DNA of 63,999 nucleotides, filler included, from Stramenopiles sp. TOSAG23-6 (GCA_900128565.1; 11 parts of 11 records of this genome joined end to end with filler, not necessarily neighbours in it); one strand, 5' to 3'. Shown: positions 98 to 63,999, counted from the first letter of the whole stretch. Notes: generated by a model not told the origin, from the sequence alone. Translations and numbers: made by a program.

Positions 98-709
98 CGT
101 GCGTCAAAGTCTGTACCAAGTGAATCCCAGATTGTAGGCAACATTTCCTTTCTAGGACGGCTAAGGACGCGAAGAGTAATATTAACATTCTGAAGATCTT
201 TAGTACCTGTAACAGTACTAATATTGTTTGGGCGGGTGCGCACATCAAACTCAACTACGTCCTGTTTTATTGAAAGTATGGATAGGTAAACGTCATAGTT
301 AGTTAAAAGTGTATAGTAAAAGAGAATACAATAGAAGTGCGGATCGGGAGACATTTGAGACGCATGGAACAATTCCTTTATTACCGTGTCAGGATTAGCA
401 TGAAAATTATCATCGTCAGATCTAGCGAAGCCCGCTAGTCCGCAAAACATATACATCATTCCCGGATAAAGAAAAATAGGACACATGACAGAAATATGTA
501 CTTTACGTAAGAAAACTTACCCATAAGAAAGGAACCTTAAAATGTGTACCTTCTCCGTATACCTTCTGTCGAATTCCACGGATTTTATCAAATATAACGA
601 CGCGTTTACCAGCATCAACATCAAATAAACATTGCTGTGAAAGCGCTATGCCACCGCCGATTCCGACAGCGGCCTTTGCAANATTTGTTAATTGTCTAGA
701 GAGGCTCAT
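98..709 (-). CDS. PHB1: Prohibitin (SPFH/band-7), 5' part; exons 709-521 and 261-98, continues past contig end
   Basis: LFDVDAGKRVVIFDK..GEGTHFKVPFLW|DVVEFDVRTRP..TGTKDLQNVNITLRVLSRP is typical prohibitin after removing GT-AG intron 262-520. Confidence 0.93.
262..520 (-). other. Canonical GT-AG intron (259 nt) of prohibitin, hosting a snoRNA
   Basis: GTAAGT donor, AACTAAC branch point, AAACAG acceptor; removal gives in-frame PFLW|DVVEFD. Confidence 0.9.
384..465 (-). ncRNA. Intronic box C/D snoRNA, predicted dual guide (U6 A53 and an LSU rRNA adenosine)
   Basis: C box ATGATGT (459-453), D' CTGA (419-416), C'-like ATGATAA, D CTGA (392-389), CCG/CGG terminal stem; D guide complementary to U6 GAUUAGCAUG, D' guide to LSU AUCUAGCGAA. 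Confidence 0.8.
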
Positions 710-3835: not shown

Positions 3836-5452
3836 TTAACCTTTGACAACAGCTACTGGGCGCAATTTAACTACTTTTTTCGATAATCCTGAATCGTGNC
3901 AAGTATCTACAACCTGTGTCACATGTATTTTGGAAAAATATTTCAACAAAAAAANTGTTAGGTANAAAATTTTCNAANAAAANAANCCATTGGAATTTGA
4001 AAAAAAATAAAACATACATCTTTATAACTTTCTGGTGCTTCCTCCATAACTAACTTTGGTGATGCNACTCGAATTGAAATTCCTTTTTTTTCTAAATTTT
4101 CTAAAACATCCTCATAATTNATTATACGCCGACTTTTTGCTCTACTTAAAGCGCGCCCTGCGCCATGACNAGTACTNCCCCCATNTTTNTTTCNTNCNTT
4201 CAGCCGTACCTGTCAGCACATACGAACAAGTGCCCATCGTTCCTCCAATTAGCACAGGTTGTCCAGTAAATTGATAATCAACTGGAATGAGTGGATGATG
4301 AGGTGGAAAGGCGCGAGTTGAGCCTTTCCGATGTACAAGAAGCTGTTTTGGTTTTCCGTGTACCATATGTTGCTCTATCTTTGCGATATTGTGTGATACA
4401 TCATATATAAGGTGCATGTCTAGATCNTCGGCAGTAGAATCAAACATTTTAGAAAANGCTTGACGTGCAAGAAATGTCATTGATGATCTATTCACCCAGG
4501 CATAATTTGCAGCAGCAGCCATTGCCTTCAAATATCGTTGGCCTTCTTTGCTTTGTATTTTTGCACAAGCTAATTGTCTATCATTGGTTTCAATATTATC
4601 CCGGACCATGGCTCTTTCCATTTCAATCAGTGAATCCGTTGCGACTTGATGCCCAAGTCCTCGACTACCTGAATGGATCATGACACACACCTGGCCTTTA
4701 TTATATAAACCCATTTTATTTGCTGAAAAATCATCATATATTTCATCAACCACTTGAATTTCGCAATAATGATTTCCTGCACCAAGTGTTCCAAGTTGAG
4801 GTAGGCCACGTTTTTTTGCACGACTCGAAACACAATTTGGATCAGCATTTAGCATCCGGCCATTTTCTTCACAATGCTCCTTATCCTCGGCCCATGCATA
4901 TCCTTCCCGGAGACTCCAATCCATTCCTAATTCTAAAGCGTCATTTAGATCATTAGCATTTGTCGGTATGATACCTCTGCTTCCAACACCAACAGGAATA
5001 TGATCGAACAATGACTGAGTCAATTTGTCCTTCTTNTCACACAGGTCTTTTTCATGAAGATTTGTTCGTAAAAGCCGAACACCACAATTTATATCAAATC
5101 CAACTCCTCCAGGAGAAACAACAGCGTTAGGGTCATCCATATCAAATGCTGCTACATTTCCAATGGCGAAGCCATATCCTGAGTGTATATCTGGTAAACC
5201 AATTGAATGGCCGACGATGCCCGGAAGTGCGGCAACATTTGATAATTGTTTTACTGCCGGAAGGAAGCCCCCGAAGCCTTTTGCATCGCAATGAAATCGC
5301 AGTTCATCCATCATCAGAGGTTCTAGTACAGAATTCACATAATAAAGAGCAGGCACTACCATATTTGGAACAAAACCCTTCTCAATGCGATACATGTGGC
5401 CTCCTACATGACTTATAAAAGCTTTTTCTTGTTCAAACGTTCGCCTCGGCAT
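3836..5452 (-). CDS. RTCB: tRNA-splicing ligase RtcB; intron 3923-4017; apparent frameshift in N-rich 4166-4200
   Basis: [36 protein letters not shown] and C-terminal EEAPESYKD|VTQVVDTx[11 protein letters not shown]. Confidence 0.97.
3923..4017 (-). other. Non-AG family intron (95 nt, GTATGT...AAAATACAT), phase 0
   Basis: Removal gives YKD|VTQVV; TACCTAAC core; AT on both flanks. Confidence 0.88.
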
Positions 5453-5816: not shown

Positions 5817-5916
5817 NNNNNNNNNNNNNNNNNNNNNNNNNNNNNNNNNNNNNNNNNNNNTTAATTAATTAANNNNNNNNNNNNNNNNNNNNNNNNNNNN
5901 NNNNNNNNNNNNNNNN
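5817..5916. other. Artificial contig spacer; also at 11730, 17638, 23534, 29426, 35318, 41210, 47097, 52983, 58868
   Basis: Identical 100-nt N-padded TTAATTAATTAA linker with stops in six frames; flanking contigs unrelated. Confidence 0.98.
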
Positions 5917-5969
5917 TACGAAATTTTGTACCTAACGATTTTTTTTTCAAATATTTTTCCAAAATACAT
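5917..5969 (+). other. 3' part of a non-AG family intron at contig start
   Basis: TACGAAATTTTGTACCTAACGATTTT...AAATATTTTTCCAAAATACAT then in-frame exon IIDGAKK. Confidence 0.8.
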
Positions 5970-6755
5970 ATAATAGATGGAGCAAAGAAATTTGCAAAAA
6001 CTGGAATTGCAGAAAGTGCTGCAACTGGAGAGTCAGACCAATACAAATTCTTTACATCTATTCTTCGAAAACATGTACATTTTCATTCATATTATGAATG
6101 TGTATTAATTTCTTTTTTTGTAAAAACAAATCGTACCTAACGATTATTTTTTTTCGTAAAATTTCGTGTTTTTTTCACAATATATGGAGTCCAAATAGAA
6201 GAAGAGACCAATGCACCAGTAGAATTTACACCTGGAATCCCGGGACCAAGTGGACCAAAAATTATTCTCCAACCTGCTTGCGGTGTTACTATTGATGAAT
6301 TATGTTCTATTTTTCCTGATCCTAAATCTGTCAAAATCAGTGCTCAGTCTACTTTAATCATCGGTCGAAAAGCGTCTATTCGCAATTTTAGTCTTGATGG
6401 CCATTTTTGTGTTTTACCTACAAATCTTGAAGAAAATGGAACATCTCAATCAAGAGAAACGATTTTGGAAATTAATGATTTGACTGTAAAAAATAGAGGA
6501 TCAAAATTTGTTGCATTGACAAAAGTAGAAATGAACGATCCTTCCATTCCTGAAAATTTAAAAATTCGTGGGTATAAGCTTATTGTTGACGAATGTGAAG
6601 TGTTTTGCTTAGGAGAGAAGAAGACTAATGGTGACATTGTTAATCGTAAGCGAACTCTAGAACCTGTGATGGGAGAGAAGTCATTGAAACGTCAAAAAAG
6701 CGACGAGGGCATAGACACGAAAAATGCGGTAGTGAATGGTCAAAGTGTACAGTAA
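5970..6755 (+). CDS. USP: UDP-sugar pyrophosphorylase, C-terminal part; exons 5970-6074 and 6186-6755
   Basis: ESAATGESDQY..ILRKH|GVQIEE..ISAQSTLII..IRNFSLDG..DPSIPENLKIRGY resembles plant USP C-terminus. Confidence 0.8.
6075..6185 (+). other. Non-AG family intron (111 nt, GTACAT...CACAATATAT), phase 0
   Basis: Contains in-frame stop; CGTACCTAAC core; removal gives ILRKH|GVQIEE. Confidence 0.85.
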
Positions 6756-6947
6756 AGAAAGAAAAAGTAAAAAGATAAATTCAATAAATTGTTTTTGTTA
6801 TTTTCCATTTGTTTTTTTTTTTATTCAATAAATTGTTTATGCTGTGGAAGTTCTCCAGGATGATTTGGTTAATGACTTGGCACATATTGGTACAGGTACT
6901 TTCCTTAGATATTGAACTAATGAATGAAATAGAAATTGTTTGACATT

Positions 6948-7042
6948 AAAATCATACAACAATACTTCGAAATTAAAAAAAATCGTTAGGTACAAAATTT
7001 CGTACGAAAAAATATTCAAAAAAAAAATCATACAACAATACT
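6948..7042 (-). repeat. Atypical family copy downstream of the DUF676 gene, bracketed by a 19-bp direct repeat
   Basis: Core TTTCGTACGAAATTTTGTACCTAACGATTTT on minus; AAAATCATACAACAATACT at 6948-6966 and 7024-7042. Confidence 0.8.
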
Positions 7043-7146
7043 GTACAATAAAATAGATTTTTAACATCTTTTATTTAATTTTATGTGCAATTTTATGTGC
7101 AATGTATTTACAATAAATAAACCTTTTTGTGCAATAGAATCGAATC

Positions 7147-9720
7147 TTATGCTCCACTTTCAATTCCAGGTGTTGTCGGTATGGTAAATGCAGAGTTTAC
7201 TAATGCATGTAAAGGCATTTTTGTTGTGTTGCCCTTTTCAGACAATCGTGCAGGAACAATAGCCGTAGATGGATCTTCCTGAATATCTTTTTTTTGATCA
7301 ACAGGTTCAATTTGTTTCACGGTCTTCGGATAGGATGGATCTTCCTGAATATCTTTTTTCAATACAATTAGTAAACCCTCAGTATATTCGAGAAGTTGAA
7401 TAAAGTCGTGTCTGCTTTGCATCCACATCTTCACCATAAATTTGGCTTCGTCTTGCATTTGATTAATGAGTTTGTAGAAATTATACATCTCTGTGCTTAA
7501 ACGATATCCCTGGCGAAGCATAGGCATTCCATGCTCATACACAACACCAGCACTCGTCCTTACTGTTTTTACAGTATCTTTAAGCGCCGCTAATTTGGCA
7601 ACTAATGTATCCATATCCTGTACAAGTTGATATGTTTCATTCAAAACTTCTTTTGCAACATTCATTCGATCTACGAATGCCGCGGGTCCTTGATCTGCAA
7701 AATCAAGAGCTACCATACCAGCACTAAGAGGATTTGATAATGCAGTAACTGATTCGTACATACTCTTTGCTTTCATGTAGGCATTTTTTACTTTAGTGTA
7801 CTCTTTCTTTATGTCCAAGCAAGCATTTAGGACTGGTACAAAATGACTTTTAAGCTCTACAGTGTGTTTAGCAATTTTCTTTCCGGTTTCAACTGATTTC
7901 AATGTCATCTTATGCATTACTTTCACAGACTTCATCATTGTTTCAGTATCTTTTACAAGTTCATGCATTGAATTTGGAATTCCCACAACAGCTTGGCCAA
8001 ATGTCATACTTTCAGAGACATTAGTATCGAAATTATGTCCTGCAACGTATTCGCGCCAAACTTTCAACGTTAACGCAGCGTTGTTTAATGACTTGAGTCG
8101 TGCACGATACTTGGGTAATGTATCATCTTTGACACGATAAACAACTATTGCATTAGATTGATTTGTTTCTTGCTGAAGATTATAATTTATTGCTTGTTCA
8201 ATTGCAGCTTGTATAACATCAGCAGCTTTTCCATTCAATGGCGCAGTTACAGGTTTCGTCAAATGTTCAACGGCATGTTTTGGTACATCATTTAATAGAA
8301 GATCGGAATGTGCATTAGCAATCCAATTATTATAAACAGTATCAAATCTTATCCATTGAATGCTTTGAAGTTGTCGTAACATTCCTTTCATTACATGAAT
8401 CATTTCTTTAGATTCTGTACTGTACAAACTAGATATATCGGCGTCCTTCAAAACATCATTTGCTTTATTTAGGGAATACATTGTGATATGCGGATAATTC
8501 TTATCTGTTGCTGATGATGCTTCAAATTGACGACATCCAGGGAACCAGCCACGTGTCACTTGAGTATATGGATTAATTCCTCGAATAGATGCAGACTTAA
8601 GTGGAGCAGCATTATCATCCATCCTCACATTTGAATACAGCACGCGATTCTTAAATAATTTCAATGATTCGATATAATGATGGTTAGTCATTGTTGCCAA
8701 TATAGGTTCATCATTATCACCAGTATTATCATCTAAGTGAAGATCAATGGTAGTTTGCTGTCTCCATCGTTTTAGAGAAAAGAACTTAAAGAAGGTTCCA
8801 TTCCAATATTTGCCACGTAATCCCAAGTGAGGTGAAGCAAAAGTAACAAAGTTTACAGGAATAATGACATTGAATATATTCATTCTATTCAATTCGCCAA
8901 TAGCATATCGGATGTACAGTCCACCAATACCATGGCCGATGAATGATATATGAGTCAATAGTGGCATTTTATCCAAAACATGTAATATTTCACTTACAAG
9001 ACGATCACCTCCATTTTTGATCCCATCATCAGTAAGGCCTTGACTCATTTGAGCAATGTACACATAACTACCATCACCAGCCCCAGACGTAAGTTCTGTT
9101 TTTACTTGATCCCAATGATTTCTGGACGAGTCACGATCTGGCTGACATACAACGAGATGACTTGAGACAAGTCGAGTAGTCGATTCGGCAGCTGAAAAAG
9201 CGGCTTCACGTGCTTTATCATTTACTCTCATTATCTTTGCTTTCTCTGCCTGAATCCTTTGGTCCAAAACCCAACGTATGCGTTGTTTTTTAAAGAATGC
9301 ATAACCGTCATTAAGAATTTCTGCAGCTCTTGCATCGTCTGCCGCTTTCTTGGCTTGAGCTGCCGCTTTCTTGGCTTGAGCTGCAATACTTGTAGCTGTG
9401 TGAGCAGCCTTCGCCGAGGCCATTCCTGCATCTGTACCGATATATTTCTGCCATGTTGAATAAGCGTATCCTTTCACTGTCTTATTATTATAGTCTTCGC
9501 CATCTTGGACGATGTTTTCCCGCATTTTCTTCAACTCTTTCTCTTCCTTGATTAGCTGTTTATACCTTTTTTTCATTTCTCGTCTCTTACGATTAAAAGA
9601 AGCTCCTTCGTTACGAGATTCGTTACTGTTCACCCGGCTGTTAATCCCACCGGCATAACATCCTGTGTCAATGACACAGAAAAATGTCAAAAGCACGAAT
9701 ACAGAACGTAGTACTTTCAT
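7147..9720 (-). CDS. Signal-peptide DUF676-like alpha/beta-hydrolase with helical C-terminus; probably catalytically dead
   Basis: HISFIGHGIGGLYIRYAIG, NFVTFASPHLG, LKLFKNRVLYSNVRMD; hydrophobic N-terminus. Confidence 0.8.
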   Translation of the reverse strand: MKVLRSVFVLLTFFCVIDTGCYAGGINSRVNSNESRNEGASFNRKRREMKKRYKQLIKEEKELKKMRENIVQDGEDYNNKTVKGYAYSTWQKYIGTDAGMASAKAAHTATSIAAQAKKAAAQAKKAADDARAAEILNDGYAFFKKQRIRWVLDQRIQAEKAKIMRVNDKAREAAFSAAESTTRLVSSHLVVCQPDRDSSRNHWDQVKTELTSGAGDGSYVYIAQMSQGLTDDGIKNGGDRLVSEILHVLDKMPLLTHISFIGHGIGGLYIRYAIGELNRMNIFNVIIPVNFVTFASPHLGLRGKYWNGTFFKFFSLKRWRQQTTIDLHLDDNTGDNDEPILATMTNHHYIESLKLFKNRVLYSNVRMDDNAAPLKSASIRGINPYTQVTRGWFPGCRQFEASSATDKNYPHITMYSLNKANDVLKDADISSLYSTESKEMIHVMKGMLRQLQSIQWIRFDTVYNNWIANAHSDLLLNDVPKHAVEHLTKPVTAPLNGKAADVIQAAIEQAINYNLQQETNQSNAIVVYRVKDDTLPKYRARLKSLNNAALTLKVWREYVAGHNFDTNVSESMTFGQAVVGIPNSMHELVKDTETMMKSVKVMHKMTLKSVETGKKIAKHTVELKSHFVPVLNACLDIKKEYTKVKNAYMKAKSMYESVTALSNPLSAGMVALDFADQGPAAFVDRMNVAKEVLNETYQLVQDMDTLVAKLAALKDTVKTVRTSAGVVYEHGMPMLRQGYRLSTEMYNFYKLINQMQDEAKFMVKMWMQSRHDFIQLLEYTEGLLIVLKKDIQEDPSYPKTVKQIEPVDQKKDIQEDPSTAIVPARLSEKGNTTKMPLHALVNSAFTIPTTPGIESGA

Positions 9721-9968
9721 TATAAAGTTGTATTTCGATAAGTTTTGGTTTGCGCAAATTTATGTTATGCATGCGCGGCGAAGAAGAAGCTAGACTGAGT
9801 CACTGTGAGTTCCTCGCAAAAAAAAATTTTGGTAGCAAATTTTACATATTTCTTTCTTTTTCGTGTTATGCGAAAAATTTTGACTAAAAAAAATTTTTTT
9901 AGTCAAAAAAATCTTGACACAACGCCTTGTCAATTAATTCAAAGTACTTTCGCATTTCTTGAAGAAAA

Positions 9969-11133
9969 ATGAGAGGCACTGTCTGCAGAATGTCCAAATC
10001 AATGATGGAATGTCGTAGTGTTATAGTAAAAGAATTTGGTGATCCCTCGGTCATGCAATTGACCAAAAAAACTATTCCTCAACCTGCAAGTGGTCAGGTG
10101 CAAATTAGTGTTGAAGCTGCTGGTGTCAATCCATCTGACACATACCAACGATTAGGACCTAACGGACCTTGGGCAGCAACGCCACATTTATTACCGAAAT
10201 TACCGTATACGCCTGGTAAAGATGGATCAGGAGTGATCACTGCTGTAGGAGAAGGTGTTACTAATTTTGAGGTCGGAGATCGTGTTTATACTAATGGTTC
10301 TATCACTGGAATGTTTGCTGAGTTTGCAGTTTGTAATACAAACCAAGTGTTTCCTCTACCGGATAATATTTCCTTCTCTCAAGGTGCTGGAATTGGTGTT
10401 CCTGCAGCGACAGCTTATAAAGCACTTTTAATGCGTGCTGGTATTAAAAAGGGTGAATCTCTCTTAATTCACGGAGCTTCTGGAGCTGTTGGCTTAGCTG
10501 CCACTAACATAGCCGTTGCGTGTGGGTGCACCGTAGTGGGTACAGCGAGTTCACAGGCGGGTGAAGCTGCTGTTATTGCTGCGGGGGCAACTGCCGTCGT
10601 AAATCATAAAAAGCCGGGATATCTTGAGGAAGCAGTGAGTGCTATTGCTGATAAAAGTAATGGTTTTGATGTGCTACTCGAAAATGCTGCGGATATCAAC
10701 CTTGTGAGTGACACTTCTGTCATGGCAAAAAATGGTCGAATTTGCATTGTTGGTTCGAAAGCGAAACCAATTCCATTTAATCCACGACTTACTATGCCAA
10801 AAGAGTTGGATATTCGTGGTGTGTTTCTTAGTGCGAGTGATGTATGTTTTATTTTATTTTTTTAATTCGAATTTGTTTTCATACGAAATTTTGTACCTAA
10901 CGATTTTTTTTTACTAACCAAAAAACCAAAAAAAAAAAAAATATTTTTCCAAAATACATCCTTCTGAAATTTCAGATATCCATTCAGAACTATTTACAAT
11001 GTTACAGACTGGCAAATTAAGTCCAAAAGTTGGTTTAGAACTTTCACTGGAAGAAGCTTCGAAAGCACATATTGAAGTAATGTCACCATCGAGTGGAGGT
11101 GCATGTGGAAATATTGTTGTTTGCATGAAGTGA
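9969..11133 (+). CDS. CRYZ: NADPH:quinone oxidoreductase (zeta-crystallin-like MDR); exons 9969-10841 and 10960-11133
   Basis: AAGVNPSD, LPYTPG, HGASGAVG; second exon supplies GKLSPKVG..LEEASKAH..GACGNIVV*. Confidence 0.9.
10842..10959 (+). other. Non-AG family intron (118 nt, GTATGT...AAAATACAT), phase 0
   Basis: Removal gives GVFLSASD|PSEISDIHSELFTMLQTGKLSPKVG, gap-free against recalled CRYZ. Confidence 0.88.
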
Positions 11134-11241
11134 ACAAAAAATTACAAAAGAAAACTTAAAAAACTTAAAAAACATAAAATATATAATAAACAAAGATTTC
11201 AAAGTTAACCACGAAAGTCCGTAGGCAAATGTATCGTTATT

Positions 11242-11729
11242 TTAATTACGCTTCAAACCAAATTTTCCCAAATGTTTTACCAGTTCATCAACGGAAGGCA
11301 TACTTTTACTACTTAACTTTGAAAAAACTAATTGATCATTATAAGAGACTTCAAATGCTCCACTATGAAAATAGTTTTGAAAGAAATAATTTAGAGCGAA
11401 CAGCAAGTACTGTGAAAAAATATTTCATGAAAAAAAAATCGTTAGGTACGAAATTTCCTATGAAAAAATAAATAAATCTGAAATGAATGAGAAAACATAC
11501 ACACCAAATACTCTGAGACGATTTTCCTGACACCACAGAAGCGCAGCAGGTTCTGGCATATTTAACCATTTGAAACATTTCCCACCAAAAAACACAAATA
11601 TCATTCCAAAGGTTTGAAGCCAAGAAACAAACTTTGGTAAATGAGACATTGGAAATGTTCCAAGATGTACAGACCCCAAAACACCATCTTCTTCTAACTC
11701 CAAATAATTATCTTCTAAAAAGGTTTTCA
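11242..11729 (-). CDS. SELENOT: Selenoprotein T-like (Rdx family), C-terminal part, one intron
   Basis: WCQENR...HSGAFEVSYNDQLVFSKL..MPSVDELV resembles SelT C-terminus. Confidence 0.8.
11405..11500 (-). other. Family intron (GTATGT...CACAGTACTT); alternative in-frame GT-AG boundaries 11502-11410
   Basis: AAATTTCGTACCTAAC core, in-frame stop inside. Confidence 0.75.
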
Positions 11730-11829
11730 NNNNNNNNNNNNNNNNNNNNNNNNNNNNNNNNNNNNNNNNNNNNTTAATTAATTAANNNNNNNNNNNNNNN
11801 NNNNNNNNNNNNNNNNNNNNNNNNNNNNN

Positions 11830-11913
11830 TGGAAAAATATTTCAAAAAAAATTTGTTAGGTACAAAATTTCGTACGAAAAAAAATTTCGAATTTGAAAAA
11901 AAATAAAACGTAC
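11830..11913 (-). other. Family intron truncated at contig end (GTACGT donor), phase 1
   Basis: GTACGTTTTATTTT..TTTCGTACGAAATTTTGTACCTAAC..AAATATTTTTCCA. Confidence 0.8.
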
Positions 11914-15194: not shown

Positions 15195-15255
15195 TTTTGT
15201 TTTCAATTTCAAATTTATTTTTTTTTATACGAAATTGTATACCTAACAAAAAGTA
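15195..15255 (+). repeat. Degenerate family copy between TTLL and SURF6 stops
   Basis: TTCAAATTTATTTTTTTTTATACGAAATTGTATACCTAACAAAA without recognisable termini. Confidence 0.6.
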
Positions 15256-15256
15256 T

Positions 15257-16552
15257 CTAGTCTGCGCCGCCTCTTCCTTTAAAATCCTCGTATCTCAAAC
15301 GACCTCCTTTGCCCTTGGCCCCTTTGACTTTACCATTATTTCCTTTCCCTCTCTTGTTCAAGAAACCATTCGCGTGTTTACCTTCAAAACCAGCCCCAAG
15401 GCGTCTCTTTTTAGTTTCAGCTTTTTTATTCTGAATTGCGTGCTTACCAAACTCTCCATTGGGACCACCTCTACGACCTTTTTTTCTTTCTCTACCATCA
15501 GTACCTTTACCTTCTGCAAGTAATAATTTAGTAGCTTTCGGATTCTTCCGCTCCAGAATGTTGGCTTGCTTTTTATCATAGGCTTCTTGTTTAGTCTGTT
15601 CTACCTTGGCATTTCGTTCTTCCCATGCTTTAGCGCTTTTTTTTTTGGCGTTTTCTTTCTTCTTCAATGCTTTTCGAAGAAGCTTTGCATCATTCTTTAC
15701 CTTTTCGCCCTTAGCTCGACTCATCATTGTTTCCCATACCTCAGCTTTCAAGAGTTCTTTTCCAGCACCAGATTGTTTAAGCTCTTCAACGCGGCGTTCT
15801 CGATCTTCCGCCTGTTTCAAAAGACTAGCTAAACTTTTGCCTTGTTTACTCTTACTAGATTTACCTGGGACACTACGAACCCCAGTTTTCTTATTTATAT
15901 CAAGTTCATTATCTACTTTACCAAATGTAACAGACTGGAATAATAGTGAAGAAGATGATTTCTCATCTGTAGTAGTAGCGACGTTCTGGGCATCGGTAAC
16001 AGGGCCAACAGAGACGTCATCTGCTTCATTTGAACTATTTTTACTTTCAGAGGTTCCATTCTTCAATGACTTCAATTTAGCATTTTTCAATTTTAATGCT
16101 TTCTTTGCAGCTTTGCGGGCAGATTTACTGGTTATTTTGGCATCTCTGCCACGTTTAACGACACCACCTCGTCCATTTTTTAAGTCCTGAATACGTTGTT
16201 TAAGACGTTCGCGAAGGGCGTCAATGGAACCCGCGGGCTCAGTTTGTACTTTATGACAACGCTGAGAACTGGCATGATTTAACTCTGCACTACCAGAAGA
16301 TTTTGTTTCGGATAACTGCTTCTTCTGAATTTCTGATACACTCTCAGTATTATCACCGTTAAACTTGGCTCGTTTGGCTTTCTTCGACGCCAATTTAAGC
16401 GCAAGCTGAGGGGCCGCCTGTTTTTTATTTTTTATAAATTTGCTTTTCCACTGCTCAGTATTCGTTTCTTGTGCTATATAATACCTAGCAGGGATCAGCT
16501 CTAACATCTGGTCGAAATAATCGCAAGTGGCCTCGATTTGAACGCCCTCCAT
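15257..16552 (-). CDS. SURF6: Surfeit locus protein 6 / Rrp14 nucleolar protein
   Basis: FDQMLELIPARYY, LRERLKQRI, RAKGEKVKNDAKLLRKALKKKE..KKKSAKAWEER, GFEG. Confidence 0.9.
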   Translation of the reverse strand: MEGVQIEATCDYFDQMLELIPARYYIAQETNTEQWKSKFIKNKKQAAPQLALKLASKKAKRAKFNGDNTESVSEIQKKQLSETKSSGSAELNHASSQRCHKVQTEPAGSIDALRERLKQRIQDLKNGRGGVVKRGRDAKITSKSARKAAKKALKLKNAKLKSLKNGTSESKNSSNEADDVSVGPVTDAQNVATTTDEKSSSSLLFQSVTFGKVDNELDINKKTGVRSVPGKSSKSKQGKSLASLLKQAEDRERRVEELKQSGAGKELLKAEVWETMMSRAKGEKVKNDAKLLRKALKKKENAKKKSAKAWEERNAKVEQTKQEAYDKKQANILERKNPKATKLLLAEGKGTDGRERKKGRRGGPNGEFGKHAIQNKKAETKKRRLGAGFEGKHANGFLNKRGKGNNGKVKGAKGKGGRLRYEDFKGRGGAD

Positions 16553-17538: not shown

Positions 17539-17637
17539 ATGTATTGTGAAAAAATATGAAATCACAAAAAAAATCTACGATTTTTTGTATTTTTTGTATT
17601 TTTTGTATTTTTTGTATTTTTTGTATTTTTTGTATTT
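17539..17637 (-). other. 3' part of a probable family intron containing a 9-mer AAAAAATAC array, at contig end
   Basis: ATATTTTTTCACAATACAT terminus as in other members; core not visible. Confidence 0.6.
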
Positions 17638-23633: not shown

Positions 23634-23760
23634 AAAAAAAAATATAAAAAAAATTTTTTGGGAAAAAAATTTTTTTCCAAAAAAAAAAAAAAATTGTTAG
23701 GTACAAAATTTCGTACGAAAAAAAAAAAATTCAAATGTAAAAAAAATAAATAAAACATAC
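23634..23760 (-). other. Family intron truncated at contig end (copies 29526-29652, 35418-35544)
   Basis: AAT|GTATGTTTTATTT..TTTCGTACGAAATTTTGTACCTAAC. Confidence 0.8.
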
Positions 23761-25049: not shown

Positions 25050-26356
25050 ATGAGTGATCCAAAAAGTGAAGTGAAACCTCACCTACGTTCCTTAATCCGT
25101 GGCAAAGGAAAAGTCATTGTTACAGACACTTTTTCCGCAGCTCAACCAGGTCAATGTAGAAAAAAGGCTGCAGCGTCTGCATTAGTCTTCGCCAAGTCAA
25201 ACGTGTCTTTGTCAACCATTACACCCGATAGTATTAGTGTACATGGTGGGGATCATGTAGTAGGTACAGTAGATGATAACACTTCTAAAATAACAAAAGG
25301 ACCTCCAAAAAAAAACAACTGGATCGACGACGCATTAGACCAACTATCTGATGCCAGAGGTGTTCAGTGGCAAAAAAAAGTTGCTGCCCAACGAGAAATA
25401 TCAGCAAGAACTACTGAACTAAACAGACGTAATCGAGGCGCATATGAATTGAAACATCATAAGGAGGCTATTCGACAAAACGTATGTTTTAACCATAACA
25501 ATATTTTTTTTTAATTCATTATTTTTTTCATGACTTTTTCAAAAAAAATTTCAATTTTTTTTTTATATTATTTTTGTACCTAACAAACACAAATCAGTTT
25601 TTCACAAATATATTCTTACCATACATGATGTACGAGCTACTGATAGAGAATTAGTAATGGATTTATTCGGTACAGATTTTGCAATTCCACCGCCAGAACC
25701 AAAAAAGAAAAACCAAAGTCAAAAAAGTAAAAAAAGTAAAAAAATCAAAAAAAGTAAAAAAAATATATATTGTAACCCTAACCCTACTGTGGATAAAAAT
25801 ATTGCAAAAGCGTGTCAAAATGCATCATTTATTGCTCATTCAGCAAGCAATTGTATCACTAGTTTTTTATCTACTTTTGATAGACAAATGGAGTTTCTAT
25901 TTGAAGAATTTAATAANAAAAAANGTAGTGAANAAAAAAAANGTANTTNCTGANTTNACAAAAAATCTACAAAAAATAAAAAATAGTGATAAATTAGCAA
26001 ATCGAGATGAAATTAATGATGAAGTAGAAGCATTATTTGGCATATTTGATGAAGAATGTCGTAGTGCGCCGATAGAATGTAAAATCAAAATAGCCGAAAA
26101 TAATAATTTGAATATTGATGATTTAATTCATTGTGTACAATTCCAACTAGGGTTAGGGTTAGGGTTCATTACAATTGGTTTTCATGATCATTATCCATCC
26201 CATTCTCCACCTATATTATATATAGATGAGATAAAGAATGATAAAAAGAAAATAGAAAAATTGAGACATTTGTTACATTATATGCATGCTGATGGAAATG
26301 GTGAAATTTGTGTTTGGCAATGGATTGAAATGTTGAAATCTACATTCAATAAATAA
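25050..26356 (+). CDS. RWD-domain protein; intron 25482-25626; apparent frameshift in N-rich 25915-25960
   Basis: EINDEVEALFGIF..YPSHSPP..GEICVWQWIEML RWD signature. Confidence 0.7.
25482..25626 (+). other. Non-AG family intron (145 nt, GTATGT...ACCATACAT), phase 0 (copies 31374-31518, 37266-37410)
   Basis: Joins IRQN|DVRATD in frame; internal CAG at 25597 is out of frame. Confidence 0.75.
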
Positions 26357-42742: not shown

Positions 42743-45334
42743 ATGAAAAGAATGCATTTGCTCTGTAAAAAAATGATTTCATTAATACTGTGTAGTATGC
42801 TTGCAAGTACGGTTGAAGCTACTAACTGCGTTTCTATAGTTTGGCCACGACCATTTTCTGTTATATCAAATACTTCTATCGTCATTGTGAAAGTTTCTTC
42901 ATCTTTCTCGAAAAGTAGTATGAAAGGTGTCTTACACGACGACAGAGATAATCTCATAAATTCAAGCAAAATTACGCTTCCTTGTCCTCCAATAGAACGT
43001 GTATGTATATATTTAGATCATTGGTTGACAGAATTTTGCTTACCTGTGAAAGAAAACTACAGAGATGCCAAGGAGTTTGATTTGCATTTTGATCTCAGAG
43101 AGATCGGAGGAGTCACTCTTGGAATACACGTAATTTCCATACAGGAATTTACGCAAGGTATCTCATCATATGCACGAACAACTCGTTTTTGCGATAATTG
43201 CACTATTATAGTACAAATAGTTTCACCACCACTAATAGAACTAGAAGGAGATGAATTAAGTGCTGCACGCAATATTACCAATCATTTTGTACTTCCAATA
43301 TTGGATCAAAAAATGTTCACTTCTTCGATATCAAGTTCATGTATAGATAGTAATATGACAATGTCTTGTGCATTTAAGAGAATAGCAATATTAAATGGTG
43401 AATTTATTCTATTTGATAAGTTTAGTGCTGACTCAAAAAACACTACACTAGGTACCCAGTTACCTATTATTAGCCCAACAAAAAATACAAAAAATACAAA
43501 AAATTCTTTAGGTACAAAATATTCTGAAAAAAATAAAGATGCTGTGAGATTTTCAGGCAATTTTATTCAACCTTCATTCAGGCACCGTGTTGCCATGGAA
43601 AATGTTCCTCCTATTCATGTGCGTTTTCAAAATTGAATTTTAATTTCAAATGTTTTTTTGTACGAAATTTCATACCTAACAAAATTTAAAAAAAAAATGA
43701 AATATTTAAATGCCAGACATCTTAAAGTAGTAGACATGCATTGGCAGATTGCTAAACAAAATTGTCATTTTTATAGTAAAATTCCTACTTTTTTTGTATC
43801 ATTGTTTCAATTTCCCCAGCACTGGCATACATTTCACATAAGTTTTCATTATAAATTTCGAATTTTTATTTTTTCGTACAAAATTCCCTACCTAACAAAA
43901 AAATCGAATTTGACATATTTTCCCAAAATTTATGATTCTTTTATGGCATTGTGGATCACCATAATGAAGAATGCATCTTCATCATTACTTCGTGATGATA
44001 GAAACATCCAAATTGTTTTCATGTAAGTTTTTATTATTTATTGAACAAATGTTGTTAAAATGTATTTTTTTCTATTTCGAATAATTTTTTTTCATAGAAA
44101 ATTTTGTACCTAATAAAAAAAATCAAATTTTTAAAAAATATTTTCTTAAAATTCATGAATCCAGACTTCCCTCCAAGTGATAAATTAGAAATTCATCTTG
44201 GTAAATATTTGTTCTTATTTCGTATGTTGAGTCGGCATCAATTCCTCTCTTGGGCAGACTTGAAAAATTTTGAATCAACTAAAAAAAATGAAAAAAATGA
44301 AATAATTTGGAATTTTTGTTTTGATCACGTCATCACAGGATTTCGTGATGAATTAAATATGTATGACCACGATGTTACTAATGAACGTGATACATATAAT
44401 AATAGTAATAATAATAATAACAATAATCATTATATCAATAATAAGAAGAAGAAAAATGATACTCAATGTAACCCTAACACTACTCAACATTTAAATTGCA
44501 AATACAAAAAATTTAGTCAACAATTTTGGATAGATAAATTTCTTGAATTTTTTTATATCAACTTAGGTTTAATCAAAATTGAGATGACTACATATATGGA
44601 ATATCTTACCGATAGGTATTACTGTAATTCTGAATTTTTGGATAAATATTGGATTGATAGAAAAAACAAAACACAAAAAAAACACGAAAAACCAATAGTT
44701 TCAATAATTGAAAGAGAAAATCGTAAAATTCTGAATTGGAATGAAATTGAAAATATATTTCTAAAAAAAGGTTGTATGTTGTCTACTTTAAAATTTCAAA
44801 TGTATTGTTCAATTTTTGTTTGTTTTTGTACCATAATTTGTACCTAACAAAAAAATCAAATTTTTGAAATATTTTTTTCACAATACATATTCAGTTCAGA
44901 GGCTTCGAATGGAAAAAATGACAATGAGAGAACAAGTCATTGCTATGCATGAAACAACTATTTTGATTGGCTTGCAAGGAAGTGGATTAGGTAATAGCTT
45001 ATTCTTACCTCCAAACACGAAATATCAACAAATTCATGTGATACATTTATTTCCATATGGCATTTATCCATGGTTAGGAAATAATTTTTCACGAATCGCA
45101 TCATTGAATCAAAGAAAGTATACCAAATGGGTGAATAAAGACATTTCATTATCTAGATTTAAAAAACCATTTACTATTGGAAAACACGAAATATTGCCAA
45201 ATTCGAAAGAATATATTTTATTTTTAGAAGAGAATTTAAATAGAGTGTGGGATTCTCTATGGTTTACTGCGTTTCAAATTGTCACTAATCAAGACACATT
45301 TGTTGATATTCATTGGCTTGATGAAATTATATAG
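42743..45334 (+). CDS. Glycosyltransferase family 61-like protein with four family introns
   Basis: HWHTFH|DSFMALW, SIIERENRKILN, MTMREQVIAM..ILIGLQGSGLGNSLFLPP, LFPYG. Confidence 0.78.
43619..43720 (+). other. Non-AG family intron (102 nt, GTGCGT...GCCAGACAT), phase 0
   Basis: Joins PPIH|LKVV; in-frame stop inside; CAG at 43716 out of frame. Confidence 0.75.
43838..43933 (+). other. Family intron with AT donor (96 nt, ATAAGT...CAAAATTTAT), stop-free and in frame
   Basis: Interrupts HTFH|D motif; CCCTACCTAAC core. Confidence 0.7.
44023..44156 (+). other. Non-AG family intron (134 nt, GTAAGT...AAAATTCAT), phase 2
   Basis: Joins IVFM|NPD in frame; TTTTGTACCTAAT core. Confidence 0.78.
44774..44888 (+). 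other. Family intron (115 nt, GTATGT...CACAATACAT), phase 1
   Basis: Joins KKG-Y-SVQRL; an in-frame AG 6 nt downstream cannot be excluded. Confidence 0.75.
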
Positions 45335-47042: not shown

Positions 47043-47096
47043 ATGTATTTTGGAAAAATATTTCAAAAAAAAATTGTTAGGTACAAAATTTCGTAC
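47043..47096 (-). other. 3' part of a family intron at contig end
   Basis: GTACGAAATTTTGTACCTAAC..AAATATTTTTCCAAAATACAT then ATA ATA ATT CAG. Confidence 0.8.
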
Positions 47097-53082: not shown

Positions 53083-53148
53083 GTTAGGTACAAAATTTCG
53101 TACGAAAAAAAAATTTAGACAAAAAATTGAAAAAAAATTAAAACATAC
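53083..53148 (-). other. Family intron truncated at contig start
   Basis: TAT|GTATGTTTT..TTTCGTACGAAATTTTGTACCTAAC. Confidence 0.8.
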
Positions 53149-55303
53149 ATATATTTCAAGATATATTTGTAAAGCAATTGCCGCTTTCTTTGACAACTTT
53201 ACATTACTATTTTTTGTATTTTTTGTATTTTTTGTATTTTTTGTATTTTTTGTATTTAAATTGATCCACCACTGTTTCGTACCAATAACATTTCTAAGAG
53301 CATTTAAAACAGGTTTGACACAAAGTTGATGTTTGGCCAATCTTGCTATAGCAACAAATCTTTTATACACTATATCACTTGTGTACCACAATTCTATAGG
53401 ATCATCTTGTATATGATCATTAGGGTTAGGGTTAGGGTTAGGGTTAGGGTTTATATTATCTTTTTTATTTGAAACAATTTCATTACCTAAAGATTTTTTA
53501 TGTAAAGAATTTGGTACAGAAATGAGTAAATGCAAAATAACAGGTAAAAGCGAGATTCCTTGGATAGGAAAATTTTGAACGACTCTGATGGCTGCATCCA
53601 AGGCGTTATTCCTTATCTTCTCATATATTGTAAAGAAAATTAACTTTTTTTTGTTAGGTACAAAATTTACTACGAAAAAAAAAATTTAAATTTTAAATTT
53701 TAAATTTTTTAAAATTAGAGTTAGGGTTGAAAAATTACATTACGATGCCATAAAATCGTTGATAGAATAAAAACAATTATGTCAATGCTGTATCTATCTG
53801 ATATTGTATTCAGGTTAGGGTTAGGATCAATTTCGAATGCTCCAGATGTATATATACCGGTACCAGGTACCTTTTTTTCTGTGAATAATTTGTTTAGCCA
53901 TGTCAAAGTTAAATCATGTATTTTAGAAAAATATTTCAAAAAAAAATCTAAAAAAAATTGTTAGGTACAAAATTTCGTATGAAAAAAAAATTATTTACTA
54001 AAAAAAAAAAATAAAACATACATTGAAAGCGGTATTATTATTCTTCATTTCTACTTTTCCTACAGATTCTGAACTACCTATACTTTTATTATTATAACTG
54101 TGTTGAAAGACAGAAATGATACTTTGTTCAAGTAAATTAAAAACATGCTGACGTAGAAAAGATATATGGATTATGAAAAAATATTTCAAAAAAAAAATCG
54201 TTAGGTACAAATTTCGTACGAAAAACAAATTTAGACAAAAAATTGAAATGAAAACGTACATCTTCCTCTGTGAGGCTTGGATCTCTACCAATAGTTTTTT
54301 TGTTAGACCTCTGAAATGTTGAATGTAAAACAAATAAAATATCACTTACAGAATGATTAAATTTATGTATACCATTTGAAGATTTTGAATGTCTTATTAG
54401 AAAATCAAAAACTTTTTCTTGAACGTCTCTCTTCGCTCTTGTCCAAAGTCGAAGATCGTATAAAAGAGTCAGTATAAATGTACACATTCTTGCGCTTTTC
54501 TGTTCACACAATGTTTTTGCAAGCGTCTTTACTGCATTGAATAAATCTAGTGTTATATATGATGGTGTTGTTTCAAGAAGAAGATTAGTAAGACACCGAA
54601 GCCCTGTTAGTTGTTGTTCTCCTTCACCTCTGCGTCGTTCAACGCCACCAGTAGGCGAAGGGACAATGGTGACAGAAATCAACTGATATAAAGCGTAAAC
54701 ATTTCTCCTCACAATGGCAGCGATGAGCCAAACAGCTTGGGAATAACACTTTGGATTCAAATTTTTAGAGAGTTGCATTCTAGTTTTTCCTATATACTTA
54801 CCACGAACATTTACTTGATTACTTTCGTCAAAATCAAATATTTCTTTTGTTGAAATACACTGTAATAGAGGAAGTAATGATATTACCCCACCCAAACAAC
54901 GTAAAGAAGCAATAATTGACACATTATCATCATCCAAATGTTGATCTTCGGAGATAGACACTCGGGCGAAAACTCGTTTTAAAAGTCGTAAAAGTATAAA
55001 TAAGAGAGTATCATCGGTTTTGACTTTACTGTCAATACGGAAGTGTCCAAATATTTCCCGAAGAAAAGGCACAGGACAGCTAAACAGTAAAAATATTTCT
55101 AGAATTCGAGCAATCCGTTTTTCAATCCTTGATGGTGTAGTTTGATTTGTACTCTCAGCATGGACTTCAAAAAGCCAACGGGATAAAGAAATACCTGAGG
55201 CATGGTAACGTGCACAGAAAGAAGCATCTGACTGTAAATTATGCTCGAATTTATCAAAATCAGCAGAATTAAAAGATTGCACAGCATTCTTTAGGTCATT
55301 CAT
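53149..55303 (-). CDS. Neurobeachin/BEACH-family-like ARM region, 3'-truncated, with four family introns
   Basis: SLRCLGGVISLLPLL and LLYDLRLWTRAKRDVQ resemble the neurobeachin DUF4704 region; exons join in frame. Confidence 0.6.
53420..53449 (+). repeat. Interstitial (TTAGGG)5 inside a coding exon (NPNPNP on minus)
   Basis: Five perfect units. Confidence 0.9.
53623..53738 (-). other. Non-AG family intron (116 nt, GTAATT...TACAATATAT), phase 0
   Basis: Joins WHRN|EKIRN in frame. Confidence 0.75.
53916..54021 (-). other. Non-AG family intron (106 nt, GTATGT...AAAATACAT), phase 0
   Basis: Joins TAFN|DLTL in frame. Confidence 0.82.
54166..54259 (-). other. Non-AG family intron (94 nt, GTACGT...CATAATCCAT), phase 0
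   Basis: Joins TEED|ISFLRQH in frame. Confidence 0.8.
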
Positions 55304-60278: not shown

Positions 60279-61360
60279 ATGGCAATATGGAATTCAATTG
60301 GTGTATCAATCACAGAATCCTTTAATATCATCCGTAGAGACTACAAAGTAACATTATTTCTTGTCCCTGTTGTCACTTTCGTCGCTCGAAAGATTTACAT
60401 CAAGTATACTGATATATATGTTCGTCCAAGTCAGTTGAAAAATTTTTATAGTGGTAGAATAGTCTGGATAACTGGAGCATCTTCTGGCATTGGAGAGGAA
60501 ATTGCAGTTGCATTATCAAAATATGGAGCAAAAATAGTTCTAAGTGGAAGGAATGAAAATCGACTTTCACTTGTCAGCCAAAAGTGCCAGAAAGTTTCTT
60601 CAATTAAAGTTGGTGCAAAAGTTGTACCTTTCGATTTATCGGCACCACAAGTAGCGCTTCAAAAGGCAGCACAAGCAGCTGCTGAAGCGTGGAATGTACC
60701 GGTTGATATTGTTGTTATGTGTGGAGGAATTTCCTCCAGATCTGCAGTAGAAAATACAGAATATGTAGTCGATGAAAAACTATTTAAAGTGAATTTTCTT
60801 TCAAATGTGAGTATTGTTAAGTCTGTTTTACCAGGAATGTTACAACGAAAAAGGGGACATTTTATAGTGATATCGAGTATGCAAGGATTAGTTTCAATAC
60901 CATTTCGTTCAAATTATGCAGCTTCAAAGCATGTACGTTTTATTTTTTCGAATTTATTTTTTTCGTACTAAATTTTGTACCTAACGTTTTTTTTTGTATT
61001 TTTTTTTTTTTCACAATACTTGCCTTGCATGGTTACTTTGGATCGCTACGTTCTGAGGTTAGCGACCGCAATGTCGGAGTTACTATTGTATGTCCTAGTT
61101 ATGTAAAAACAAAGTTATCATTAAATGCACTTCGAGGTACAGGGGAGACTCATGGGATTATGGATGAAACAACTCAATTGGGAATGGAAGCTAGCTATGT
61201 TGCAAAAAGAACTATTCTTGCAGCAATGTCTAAAAAATCTGAGATTTGGATTTGTAGTTGGAAAGAACTTTTTGGAACTTTATTAAGTCGTGCTTCACCA
61301 GAATTATTTTCTTACATTATGTTACAACGGGCAAGGAAAGGTTGGTCTGTGAGAAAGTAA
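60279..61360 (+). CDS. Short-chain dehydrogenase/reductase (DHRS7-like); exons 60279-60932 and 61022-61360
   Basis: WITGASSGIG, YAASKH|ALHGYFGSLRSEV. Confidence 0.9.
60933..61021 (+). other. Non-AG family intron (89 nt, GTACGT...CACAATACTT), phase 0
   Basis: Restores YAASKH|ALHG; first downstream AG is 36 nt into the exon. Confidence 0.88.
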
Positions 61361-61482: not shown

Positions 61483-62535
61483 ATGAATTCGGAGTTTGAT
61501 TCAACAAACCGAAGAGGACAGAAAAAAAATAAGCATAGTAAAATGAAACATTTTGGAGTCCGCATGCACGGAACTCGAAAACTATGGGTTGAAAAGCACC
61601 ACGAAATGCACAATAATCTCATTGCCACGGCTGAGTCACATGTACGAAAGAACATTGAGAAACATGACCAACGTGTTNNNNNNNNNNNNNNNNNNNNNNN
61701 NNNNNNNNNNNNNNNNNNNNNNNNNNNNNNNNNNNNNNNNNNNNNNNNNNNNNNNNNNNNNNNNNNNNNNNNNNNNNNNNNNNNNNNNNNNNNNNNNNNN
61801 NNNNNNNNNNNNNNNNNNNNNNNNNNNNNNNNNNNNNNNNNNNNNNTTTTTCAAATTCGATTTTTTTTTTATAAAAATTTTGTACCTAACGAATATTTTT
61901 TCAAATATTTTTCCAAAATACATGATCGACCTGATGACCCTTGGCATAAAATGTGCAACACTTATAAAACGCATCGAGGAAAAGCTGTGAAAATAGGCAA
62001 AGAACACCACCAAAAAACAATAGCACGGCACAATAAAGCATTTATGGAGACATTACTCAAGACTACACCAAAGTTATCGAAAAAAGACTGGGATAGGCAT
62101 TGGAAACGTCATCTACATAAAAGAGAGGTCATGGGGAAAGTCGATAAACCAGTTACATCTTATCCTGCAACACACACATCAAAGTTTGATGCTCGCTCAC
62201 CCAAAAGTGAGTTTGTGGGAATTCCTGAATATGATGCTCATTTAGATAAAAGTGCTCAAAATTGGACGAAAAGTCGGGCCTGTCGTGTGGCTACAAAAAA
62301 TTATGAGGCTGCCTTGAAGAAAGAGTATAATGAACGTATTGCAGCTCGAAGGAAAAGAAGCCCACAAGCTGCGAAGAGTAAACTAGTGAAATTAAGGAAA
62401 GCTTCACCAACGAGTGACTTAAAAGCAAATTCCGCTACGATTTGCATCCCAAAAAATACGTCAACAGCAAATAGGAAGAAAAAGTTCAATATATGCAGTT
62501 CAAGTGAAAGTGAAAGTGATAATGATTTGTATTAA
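61483..62535 (+). CDS. CFAP97/Hemingway-like protein; gap and family intron 3' end at 61847-61923
   Basis: IARHNKAFMETLLKTTPKLSKKDWDRHW resembles CFAP97 domain; CCAAAATACAT then GAT CGA. Confidence 0.5.
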   Translation: MNSEFDSTNRRGQKKNKHSKMKHFGVRMHGTRKLWVEKHHEMHNNLIATAESHVRKNIEKHDQRVXXXXXXXXXXXXXXXXXXXXXXXXXXXXXXXXXXXXXXXXXXXXXXXXXXXXXXXXXFQIRFFFYKNFVPNEYFFKYFSKIHDRPDDPWHKMCNTYKTHRGKAVKIGKEHHQKTIARHNKAFMETLLKTTPKLSKKDWDRHWKRHLHKREVMGKVDKPVTSYPATHTSKFDARSPKSEFVGIPEYDAHLDKSAQNWTKSRACRVATKNYEAALKKEYNERIAARRKRSPQAAKSKLVKLRKASPTSDLKANSATICIPKNTSTANRKKKFNICSSSESESDNDLY

Positions 62536-62583: not shown

Positions 62584-63999
62584 CTATATTGGCGACTTCA
62601 TCTGTCGTTGCGTCTGTTCTTTCCATGTTACTGCATCTGCATATTTTGGACGCAAAGAAAGACAATGATCAAAACATTCTAAAGACTTCGTATACTTTTT
62701 CAAATAATAAAGACAAATACCTTGATTATACCAATTAACATAATGTTGACCGAAATCTTTGAGACTTGATTGAAATAATTCAATTGCCCGATGATACTTT
62801 TTGATACCCATGAAGAATCTACCTGCTTCAAAAGCTGTATCTTTTTTCTTATCAACTGGAAATATTTGAGTGCATACTTTTTCGACATCATACTCAGCAT
62901 CACTTTGAATTTTTTGAGAGGCTTTCGGTGTCTTTTCAATAATAACTAACTTAAATTTGTGAAAGACTTCTATGTCGTGATTAGAAAGTCGCAATATAGC
63001 TAAAGCTGCTTTTAAATTCATTGCTTTTGACTCTTTCTTAATACGCCGTTGGAGCGCAACAAAGTCATCTGGGCCAAACTCTACTAAGCTTTGTTTCCAT
63101 TGTAAACGAAANNNNNNNNNNNNNNNNNNNNNNNNNNNNNNNNNNNNNNNNNNNNNCCAAATATAAAAGCGCAGCATTTGAAGCCGTCCATGTGAGGTGT
63201 TATTAGTGTAGTGCCTCCGCTCAGTTCTGTGAATCTAGCCATTGCATGGAAATTAACCATAAATGAAAATGAACCATGAATTGCTATATGAGGATTGGAG
63301 TGAGTCGCCATGTCATTTTTATCAGCAAAAGCTTTATCTCCACAAATTATGATGAGTCCTCTTTTTTTCCCTACCCAAGCCTCTAATTTTTTAAGCATAC
63401 AGAGACCTCCCCAGGGAATCACAACATTTAAATCTTTCTTTGGATTCTTTGTACTCTTTGAATAATACTTTTTGTTTTGTATTTCATTTATTATTTTATT
63501 GGAATTGATTTGTTTTTTTTTAATTTCTTGAGTGAATGTTTCATAATATTCTTGAAGTATTGAATTCATTCGTTCATCACATGTATTGTGAAAAAAAAAA
63601 TGTACAAAAAAACTCGTTAGGTACGAAATTTCGTATGAAAAAAAATTGAATTGGAAATTCATATAAAACGTACTATAGTAATCTATACGTTTAGTTGTTT
63701 TAAAGTCTAGTTGTGGAGTAGGTCTGAAGTCCCATGTACATCGCACCCGTCTAATAATATCAGAGTTGTATGGATATTCTTCTTTATTATCAGAAACTAA
63801 AGTACAGAGCCCTTCATACAAGTTATATTGTGTTTTACCTATTTGTTTTGTAACGGTTGTGTCACCTTCATTTAGTTTCACTTTAAAAAAATCCTGTTTC
63901 ATTGAATTTAAAGTATAATTACATATGACTACAACTGGCGGACTTTCAATAGCAATATTTTGATCTACTAGAGCTTCTTTTTTAGCCTGTGCAACTGCA
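62584..63999 (-). CDS. Putative SAM-methyltransferase-like protein with C-terminal TPRs, 5'-truncated
   Basis: GDKAF..PHIAIHGSFSFMVNFHAM; TPR WYNQGICLYYLKKYTKSLECFDHCL. Confidence 0.6.
63581..63673 (-). other. Family intron (93 nt, GTACGT...CACAATACAT), phase 1, stop-free in frame
   Basis: TTTCATACGAAATTTCGTACCTAAC core and full termini. Confidence 0.78.

Follow-up and report, generated by a model that had tools for sequence, protein, structure and literature searches.

In the marine picoeukaryotes Micromonas pusilla and Aureococcus, introners are short non-autonomous DNA transposons that create introns (PMC11282704; here and below, what is said of published systems is limited to the available parts of the cited papers). 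We describe a family of short introns in a stretch of 63,999 nucleotides (the window) from Stramenopiles sp. TOSAG23-6 (GCA_900128565.1), taking as reference the 118 nt intron i5, located at 10842..10959 (+) in a gene for an NADPH:quinone oxidoreductase (zeta-crystallin-like). As with the introners, many similar short introns are found in unrelated genes, the element brings its 5' site, and removal of the element together with one short flank repeat restores the frame. Introners, however, have GT/GC-AG borders, with an AG co-opted from a 3-nt duplication, and clear inverted repeats (PMC11282704), whereas the present introns have an AT or TT 3' end, a fixed AT that is not specific to each copy, and an imperfect inverted repeat of 6-10 bases. 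Pending RNA confirmation, the i5 family is introner-like and differs from known introners in its non-AG 3' end.

Three other systems come close. In the tunicate Fritillaria borealis, introns derived from miniature inverted-repeat transposable elements (MITEs) are likewise transposon-like and have non-AG 3' ends (AC/AT) beside a repeated exonic motif, and these non-canonical introns are spliced by an adapted major spliceosome (PMC11282704, PMC13326754). They begin with AG and are highly diverse, ~95% of the introns of Fritillaria escaping GT/AG (same sources), whereas the i5 family has a textbook 5' site and branch box, deviates at the 3' end only, and coexists with a GT-AG intron. The introners of the parasitic dinoflagellate Amoebophrya are also repeated non-canonical introns of a marine protist, with direct and inverted repeats at their borders and no clear transposase (PMC7789003). 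In that case the borders are variable (AG-A(N), 3-5 nt repeats), hairpins are present and the U1 small nuclear RNA was not found (PMC7789003); in our case the introns form a single uniform family, the 5' site is U1-type and strong, and no signal of structure is seen. Finally, the nonconventional introns of euglenids and marine diplonemids share with the i5 family non-GT-AG borders, junction repeats that blur the exact cut, and a suspected MITE origin, but they have no U1-complementary 5' end and need stable end pairing (PMC6221363, PMC12621601); here the 5' site is strong, and the end pairing shows no covariation.

Compared class by class, the family has the similar introns in unrelated genes that characterise introners, and not their canonical GT/GC-AG sites. 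It has neither the 5' site and branch-box distance of U12-type introns nor the features of euglenozoan nonconventional introns. It is high-copy and non-coding, as a MITE would be, yet every copy seen is in gene sense, with no more than two fragments outside reading frames. The literature searched contained no description of GT-AT introns or of the i5 family, supplements being outside the search, and unusual splice sites are unmentioned in the available main text of the uncultured-stramenopile single-cell genome papers PMC5778133 and PMC5269757.

The oxidoreductase is encoded in two frames, upstream (9963-10865) and downstream (10918-11133), which are offset by +1. They are joined by deleting 10842-10959 (118 nt), or an equal length slid 1-2 bases across the AT repeat. 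At these borders the sequence reads ...GTGAT|GTATGTTTT...CCAAAATACAT|CCT. Exon 1 (9969..10841, +) has as its final two bases the exon-side AT (10840-10841), which closes an Asp codon; a second AT (10958-10959) closes the insert, and exon 2 (10960..11133, +) runs to the stop codon, included. After removal, the two exons are colinear with P0002, a 74%-identical homologue, exon 1 reaching its residue 281 and exon 2 resuming at 282; P0002 is itself one unbroken frame, on a 2,136-nt contig that could be DNA or RNA. Three blocks of i5 are shared with the family: the 5' splice-site block GTATGTTTT (10842..10850, +), consensus GTAYGTTTT in the alignment; a branch-site-like box TACCTAAC (10894..10901, +); and the 3' block TTTTTCCAAAATACAT (10944..10959, +), for which the consensus is a T-run, then YCAMAATAC, then AT or TT. 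In an alignment of 13 copies, TACCTAA is invariant (the box is also present in i16), GTAYGTTTT nearly so, and the 3' block conserved, the spacers being T-rich and variable.

Searching the window with a family profile (nhmmer) and with BLAST gave 28 matches, ~23 of them unique. They correspond to 14 complete copies and 9 partial ones, spread over ~45 kb of unique sequence; the introns are AT-rich and measure 89-145 nt. The 14 complete copies are all sense-oriented within reading frames of unrelated genes. Besides i5 they are i1 in RtcB (3923..4017, -; also 21660-21754 on a duplicate contig), i3 (6075..6185, +), i6 (11405..11500, -; ends GT...TT, placed by the frame-joining test), i10 (25482..25626, +; identical copies at 31374-31518 and 37266-37410 on duplicate contigs), i11 (43619..43720, +; GTGCGT...ACAT), i11b (43838..43933, +; ATAAGT...TTTAT, boundary less certain), i12 (44023..44156, +; GTAAGT...TTCAT), i13 in a glycosyltransferase-61-like gene (44774..44888, +), i16 (53623..53738, -; GTAATT...ATATAT), i17 (53916..54021, -), i18 in a neurobeachin-like (DUF4704) gene (54166..54259, -), i19 in a short-chain dehydrogenase gene (60933..61021, +; ends GT...TT) and i21 (63581..63673, -; exon flank TA). 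Identity between copies reaches 88%, with a pairwise median of 69%; i1 and i5 are 88% identical though their genes are unrelated.

Excision from the G of GTAYGT through the T two bases past ...AC kept the frame in 14 of the 14 complete copies, against one third expected for cuts elsewhere. In the systematic frame test, 12 copies out of 12 joined open frames; i16 was covered in a separate check, and the in-frame status of i12 (donor 44023) and i11b (end 43933) was read from the codons by hand. Removal of i1 made RtcB colinear with P0133, whose residues 478|479 are contiguous, and removal of i19 did the same for the dehydrogenase with P0246 at residues 200|201. The 3' ends so defined are AT in 12 of the 14 complete copies and TT in two. 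As removal of the element with one AT restores an uninterrupted frame, the 3' cut falls at AT or TT, and not at AG.

No AG in the neighbourhood is usable. From branch box to cut the distance is 35-59 nt, and this stretch is devoid of AG in 8 of 13 introns checked; AGs internal to five introns would leave 29, 32, 32, 5 and 4 extra bases, all frame-breaking. The first AG 3' of the cut is in frame in 6 of 13 only, and the one in RtcB would delete a conserved V-T. For i5 this AG (10974-10975) is out of frame, and the stretch from the family cut up to it encodes six residues, PSEISD, that align with PDEIGA of P0002; a segment of equal length was present at this position in all four full-length homologues inspected. 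Canonical GT-AG splicing from nearby shifted sites is nevertheless the solution adopted by two public models of identical sequence, P0391 for the oxidoreductase and P0241. With GT-AG forced, P0391 reads ...SASD-VY-IHSELF, which is 4 residues shorter than its homologues, and P0241 reads ...ASKH-VRFIFSNLFFS-DRNVG, in which a conserved 14-residue stretch is lost and intron-encoded residues are gained. Both models checked (2/2) carry indels exactly at the family intron, whereas the family rule is gap-free, and under shifted GT-AG sites the 14/14 frame agreement would be a coincidence of ~(1/3)^14. We regard splicing of this kind as very improbable.

The frame does not fix the register in every copy. 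When AT stands on either flank, one and the same message results from GT...AT, TG...CA and AT...AC, so that in AT...AT copies an AT-AC intron, whose borders would fall just ahead of the exon-side AT and just past ...ATAC and whose excision would need a minor-type (U12-like) spliceosome tolerating non-AG ends, is indistinguishable from GT...AT. Minor introns accept varied 3' ends. The conservation of the 5' block to +9 also goes in the direction of AT-AC introns, as does the branch box, which resembles both the U2-type and the U12-type consensus. Two copies with other flanks separate the registers. In i19 (AT|GTACG...ATACTT|GCC), the GT register keeps K-H-A, present in 7 of the 7 dehydrogenase homologues fetched, whereas the AT-AC register would give K-L-A; in i21, the AT-AC register would introduce an in-frame TAA, as read from the printed sequence. 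Moreover, the U12-type 5' site consensus is RTATCCTT and its branch box lies ~10-26 nt from the 3' end; the family box is farther from the cut, and the family 5' site, GTAYGTTTT, matches the GTAAGTTTT of an ordinary intron in the prohibitin gene of the window. AT-AC introns are in our view highly unlikely. Because K-H-A is kept, the TAA of i21 is avoided, and the 5' block is that of the prohibitin intron, we read the family as GT...AT or GT...TT. To judge from the sequence, its members seem to be excised at these borders rather than at GT...AG.

The prohibitin intron, at 262..520 (-), gives the contrast. It is unique, 259 nt long, and reads GTAAGTTTTC...ACTAAC...ACAG|G; the junction of its exons corresponds to residues 62|63 of human prohibitin 1 (PDB 8rrh_A) and to positions 33|34 of the Pfam profile. 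The family profile gave no match in this intron, and the family blocks are absent from it. As the same genome has an AG-using intron devoid of the family blocks, these blocks are not merely the splice consensus of the organism. A second prohibitin intron, with a GTAAGT donor, extends from 97 to the start of the window (-) and runs off the contig. Besides these two, no non-family introns were found in the window. We set aside a candidate GT-AG intron of 39 nt at 17441, a stop-free multiple of three that nothing requires, as well as GTAAGT motifs at 56130 and 61357, for their coding or stop-codon context.

It could be that the family consists of ordinary, non-mobile, lineage-specific introns, whose likeness would come from long, strict splice signals in an AT-rich background, the AT being an exon-side consensus. 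The conserved blocks do fall where splice signals lie, the spacers have diverged to the median identity given above, and, as detailed below, the flank repeat is not copy-specific. Conservation, however, exceeds the known splice signals: it spans ~22 nt at the branch box and includes two further blocks, GAAATA and TTCGAA, and identity is as high as 88% between two introns of unrelated genes. Some family fragments lie outside reading frames. The unique prohibitin intron has a 5' site and a branch site without the family blocks, and ends with AG. Contigs also break at the copies: seven copies are cut by contig ends or by a gap, an effect expected of a high-copy repeat, which breaks short-read assembly. 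In a seawater DNA run, the summed depth was 4,000-36,000 on family parts versus ~5 on unique parts, a very high value though not a copy number. Ordinary introns are for these reasons an unlikely explanation, although the least unlikely of the alternatives considered here.

The ends of i5 had been described, in a sequence-only reading of 10840-10959, as near reverse complements, and this held: ATGTAT and ATACAT are exact reverse complements, and the match extends to ~10 bases with one bulged G, overlapping the splice motifs. Both end motifs are above chance in the window, GTATGTTT with 14 occurrences versus 3.43 expected (none of 100 shuffles reached 14) and AAAATACAT with 8 versus 2.48 (none of 100 reached 8). 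That AT flanks most copies on both sides was likewise borne out. Among copies with a readable end, AT is found on the exon side in 12 of 17 (background 0.095; binomial p = 2.1e-9), and the intron terminates in AT in 16 of 18 and in TT in the other two; exon 2 opens with G in 12 of 18. The three exon-side exceptions that had been noticed (aac| at 25481, cac| at 43837 and ggt-t| at 44773) are present, and each would be a synonymous change from AT. Two more exceptions are added here, tgt| (intron 11500-11405), where gt would change Met to Val, and ata| (intron 63673-63581), where ta is unreachable from AT by one change. Also new are the two TT 3' ends, and the observation that the whole intron is repeated, not its ends alone.

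The same reading had proposed that RNA pairing of the two ends replaces AG recognition. In such a structure-guided, non-spliceosomal excision, as proposed for introns of euglenids and diplonemids, AUGUAU would pair with AUACAU and the cuts would be staggered by two base pairs. The consensus ends are indeed complementary over 6 bases, or 10 with the bulge, and the minimum-energy fold of i5 pairs its ends. We tested ten proposed pairs, from exon -2 to +9 against the last ten intron bases, in 130 cells. Paired cells amounted to 67.7%; shuffles averaged 67.8%, and 353 out of 500 were as good as the real alignment. One double change was found among the 130 cells, in i11b, where +1 and -3 go from G-C to A-U; this one does go with pairing, whereas the copies with C at +4 retain A at -6. 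Folding energies were ordinary (z-scores from -2.04 to +0.22 in 6 copies), and the ends were clearly paired only in the fold of i5, dot-brackets being read by eye. The strong GTAYGT and branch box have also been kept, which nonconventional introns lack (PMC6221363, part available). Pairing as a substitute for AG found no support in these tests, and a structure-guided excision appears quite unlikely. The complementarity of the ends is a property of the consensus and is not maintained by compensation.

A related alternation is seen within the family alignment. The 5' site alternates between GTACG and GTATG, and a box upstream of the branch site alternates between CGTAC and CATAC. Copies with C at +4 have four G and one A in the internal box, and those with T at +4 have three A and three G. 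From these sequences, the variation looks like independent decay of CG dinucleotides, not compensatory change.

We propose the following mechanism. Each copy carries its own signals, namely a major-type 5' site (GTAYGTTTT), a TACCTAA(C) branch-like box, a T-rich tract, and the 3' block YCAMAATAC followed by AT or TT. Copies are sense-oriented in protein genes of unrelated kinds, most of them directly preceded by an exonic ...AT and followed by a G, and removal takes the element and one AT, restoring the frame. Such removal would occur at the RNA level, presumably by the major spliceosome. The family would have spread by insertion, either by DNA transposition or by reverse splicing, and the exon-side AT would be the footprint of the insertion site, as a fixed 2-bp target duplication or as a target preference. 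We judge it probable, with some reserve, that this is an introner-like family of mobile introns having a non-AG 3' splice site. For the more specific proposal, that in this marine stramenopile-like protist the major spliceosome cuts the mobile family at AU or UU, as set by the element-borne YCAMAAUAC, ordinary introns keeping AG, the chances seem about even.

Several results weigh against this interpretation, and the first group concerns mobility. At 6-10 bases, the inverted repeat is short, and it is also imperfect. Within a copy the flank repeat averages 1.64 bases, versus 1.59 when flanks are cross-paired between copies, and reaches at least 2 bases in 57% versus 56%. Since it is equally long within and between copies, the AT 'duplication' is fully explained by two fixed preferences, and no copy with a matching non-AT flank pair was found. 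The earlier idea of a 2-bp target-site duplication is then possible at most: the enrichment of AT at both junctions stands, with no sign of copy-specificity. The data are compatible with a fixed 2-bp target duplication, like the TA of mariner-type elements, and they are equally compatible with a target or splice-context preference, the second AT belonging to the element. Being its own reverse complement, AT could as well be the outermost bases of the inverted repeat as a fixed target or splice-context preference. No transposase domain was detected with Pfam in 20 reading frames and exon stretches of the window, and the window holds no long element with the family ends, so that the search suggested earlier, for a long element with the same ends and a transposase, was negative within it. 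Every copy, including two non-coding fragments, faces the sense direction of the neighbouring gene, and such sense-only placement does not fit a simple DNA transposon landing either way. For coding copies, selection accounts for the orientation; the two non-coding fragments are too few to choose between DNA transposition and reverse splicing. With a median identity of 69%, no recent activity is shown. The introner or MITE-like origin that had been put forward keeps the dispersed, high-copy, sense-strand family, the exact removal and the AT preference on its side, and has no transposase in the window.

A second group concerns splicing itself. The contrast with AG-using introns rests on one complete non-family intron. 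The 93 nt of i21 are in frame and stop-free, and could be retained instead of removed. Three RNA runs mapped on 5917-11729 gave zero depth over 10185-11154, 10842-10955 being repeat-masked in the mapping. No spliced transcript from the same organism was found in protein searches with exon 1 of the oxidoreductase, RtcB, and exon 1 of the i6 gene. In the first of these searches, the only same-organism matches were an unspliced genomic frame, P0001, and the GT-AG model P0391; in the RtcB search the best match was 76% identical and none came from the same organism; in the i6-gene search there was no match at all. On the other side, a contig of poly(A) RNA (run X8) stops matching at 11500, the i6 donor, and continues for 47 letters beyond it, while DNA contigs run on. 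This stop is no more than a weak hint.

The remaining copies are partial. Seven are cut by assembly edges: a 3' part at 5917..5969 (+, contig end); a 5' part at 11830..11913 (-, contig end) in an SMN-Tudor-domain gene; a 3' part with a short tandem expansion at 17539..17637 (-, contig end); a 5' part at 23634..23760 (-, contig end; also at 29652 and 35544 on duplicate contigs); a 3' part at 47043..47096 (-, contig end) in a JmjC/cupin gene; a 5' part at 53083..53148 (-, contig end); and a 3' part at 61847..61923 (+), directly after an assembly gap. The other two have no coding context: an internal fragment at 6961..7016 (-), outside any frame, between two convergent genes and inside a 19-bp direct repeat, and a fragment at 15195..15259 (+), between two convergent genes. 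At 6961-7044 (-), the first of these is without the 3' block, is flanked by the two copies of the 19-bp repeat, and lies 3' of the stop of a DUF676 gene; it could have originated as a tandem copy or by repair capture. The expansion at the contig end is a tandem array with a unit of ~9 bases, at 17577-17637 (-), within the family copy. The neurobeachin-like (DUF4704) gene has at least 4 family introns in 1.2 kb (53083-54259, -), i18, i17, i16 and the copy cut at 53148. The SMN-type Tudor-domain gene (11914-12571, -), which hosts a family intron, encodes a domain of a spliceosome-assembly factor.

The window consists of contigs of ~5.8 kb chained by decreasing size, with linkers of 44 N, TTAATTAATTAA and 44 N (5817-5916, 11730-11829, 17638-17737 and further on). 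Contig 1-5816 is present again at 17738-23533, with identical positions of the single Ns, and contig 23634-29425 is present three times, identically, so that unique sequence amounts to ~45.4 kb. The genes are ordinary eukaryotic ones: Pfam and structure matches identified RtcB, prohibitin, a tubulin-tyrosine-ligase-like protein, SURF6, an RRM protein, RCC1 repeats, teneurin-type EGF repeats and a DUF676 esterase, and other frames may encode putative DPH2, RFC1 and a HECT domain. Six short exons gave no match in Pfam. Rfam gave no match at the gathering threshold, and a tRNA scan found none. The RtcB frame shifts at 4142-4212 (-), and at 21879-21949 in the duplicate, among scattered single Ns; the probable cause is a fault of the assembly or consensus, not an intron. 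The sequence of the window is also present in a small data set of 2015 and in seawater metagenomes and metatranscriptomes. Two gene models of identical sequence bear a MAST-like prefix, and we regard the organism as an uncultured heterotrophic protist of the sea, stramenopile-like. A 20-mer of the family core had no match in metagenome contigs. Matches of a 16-mer core, at 28 viral and at least 120 prokaryote loci, were discarded as chance, the nhmmer family profile finding no copy in 148 loci.

If RNA confirms GT...AT, this would be a natural, transposon-like intron family spliced without AG in a genome that uses AG, and within one intron class the choice of the 3' splice site would be independent of AG. 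Such a case would offer a direct test of how the site of the second step is chosen, by the distance from the branch, by a motif of the element, or by a factor such as U2AF or Prp8. Surveys of introners based on annotated GT-AG or AC introns (criteria in the available part of PMC12130899) would miss such families, and the gene models of these uncultured ocean grazers would be systematically wrong at the family sites. For the organism, the 3' splicing of these introns would amount to a transposon-neutralising adaptation like that of Fritillaria, limited to the 3' end, in a protist.

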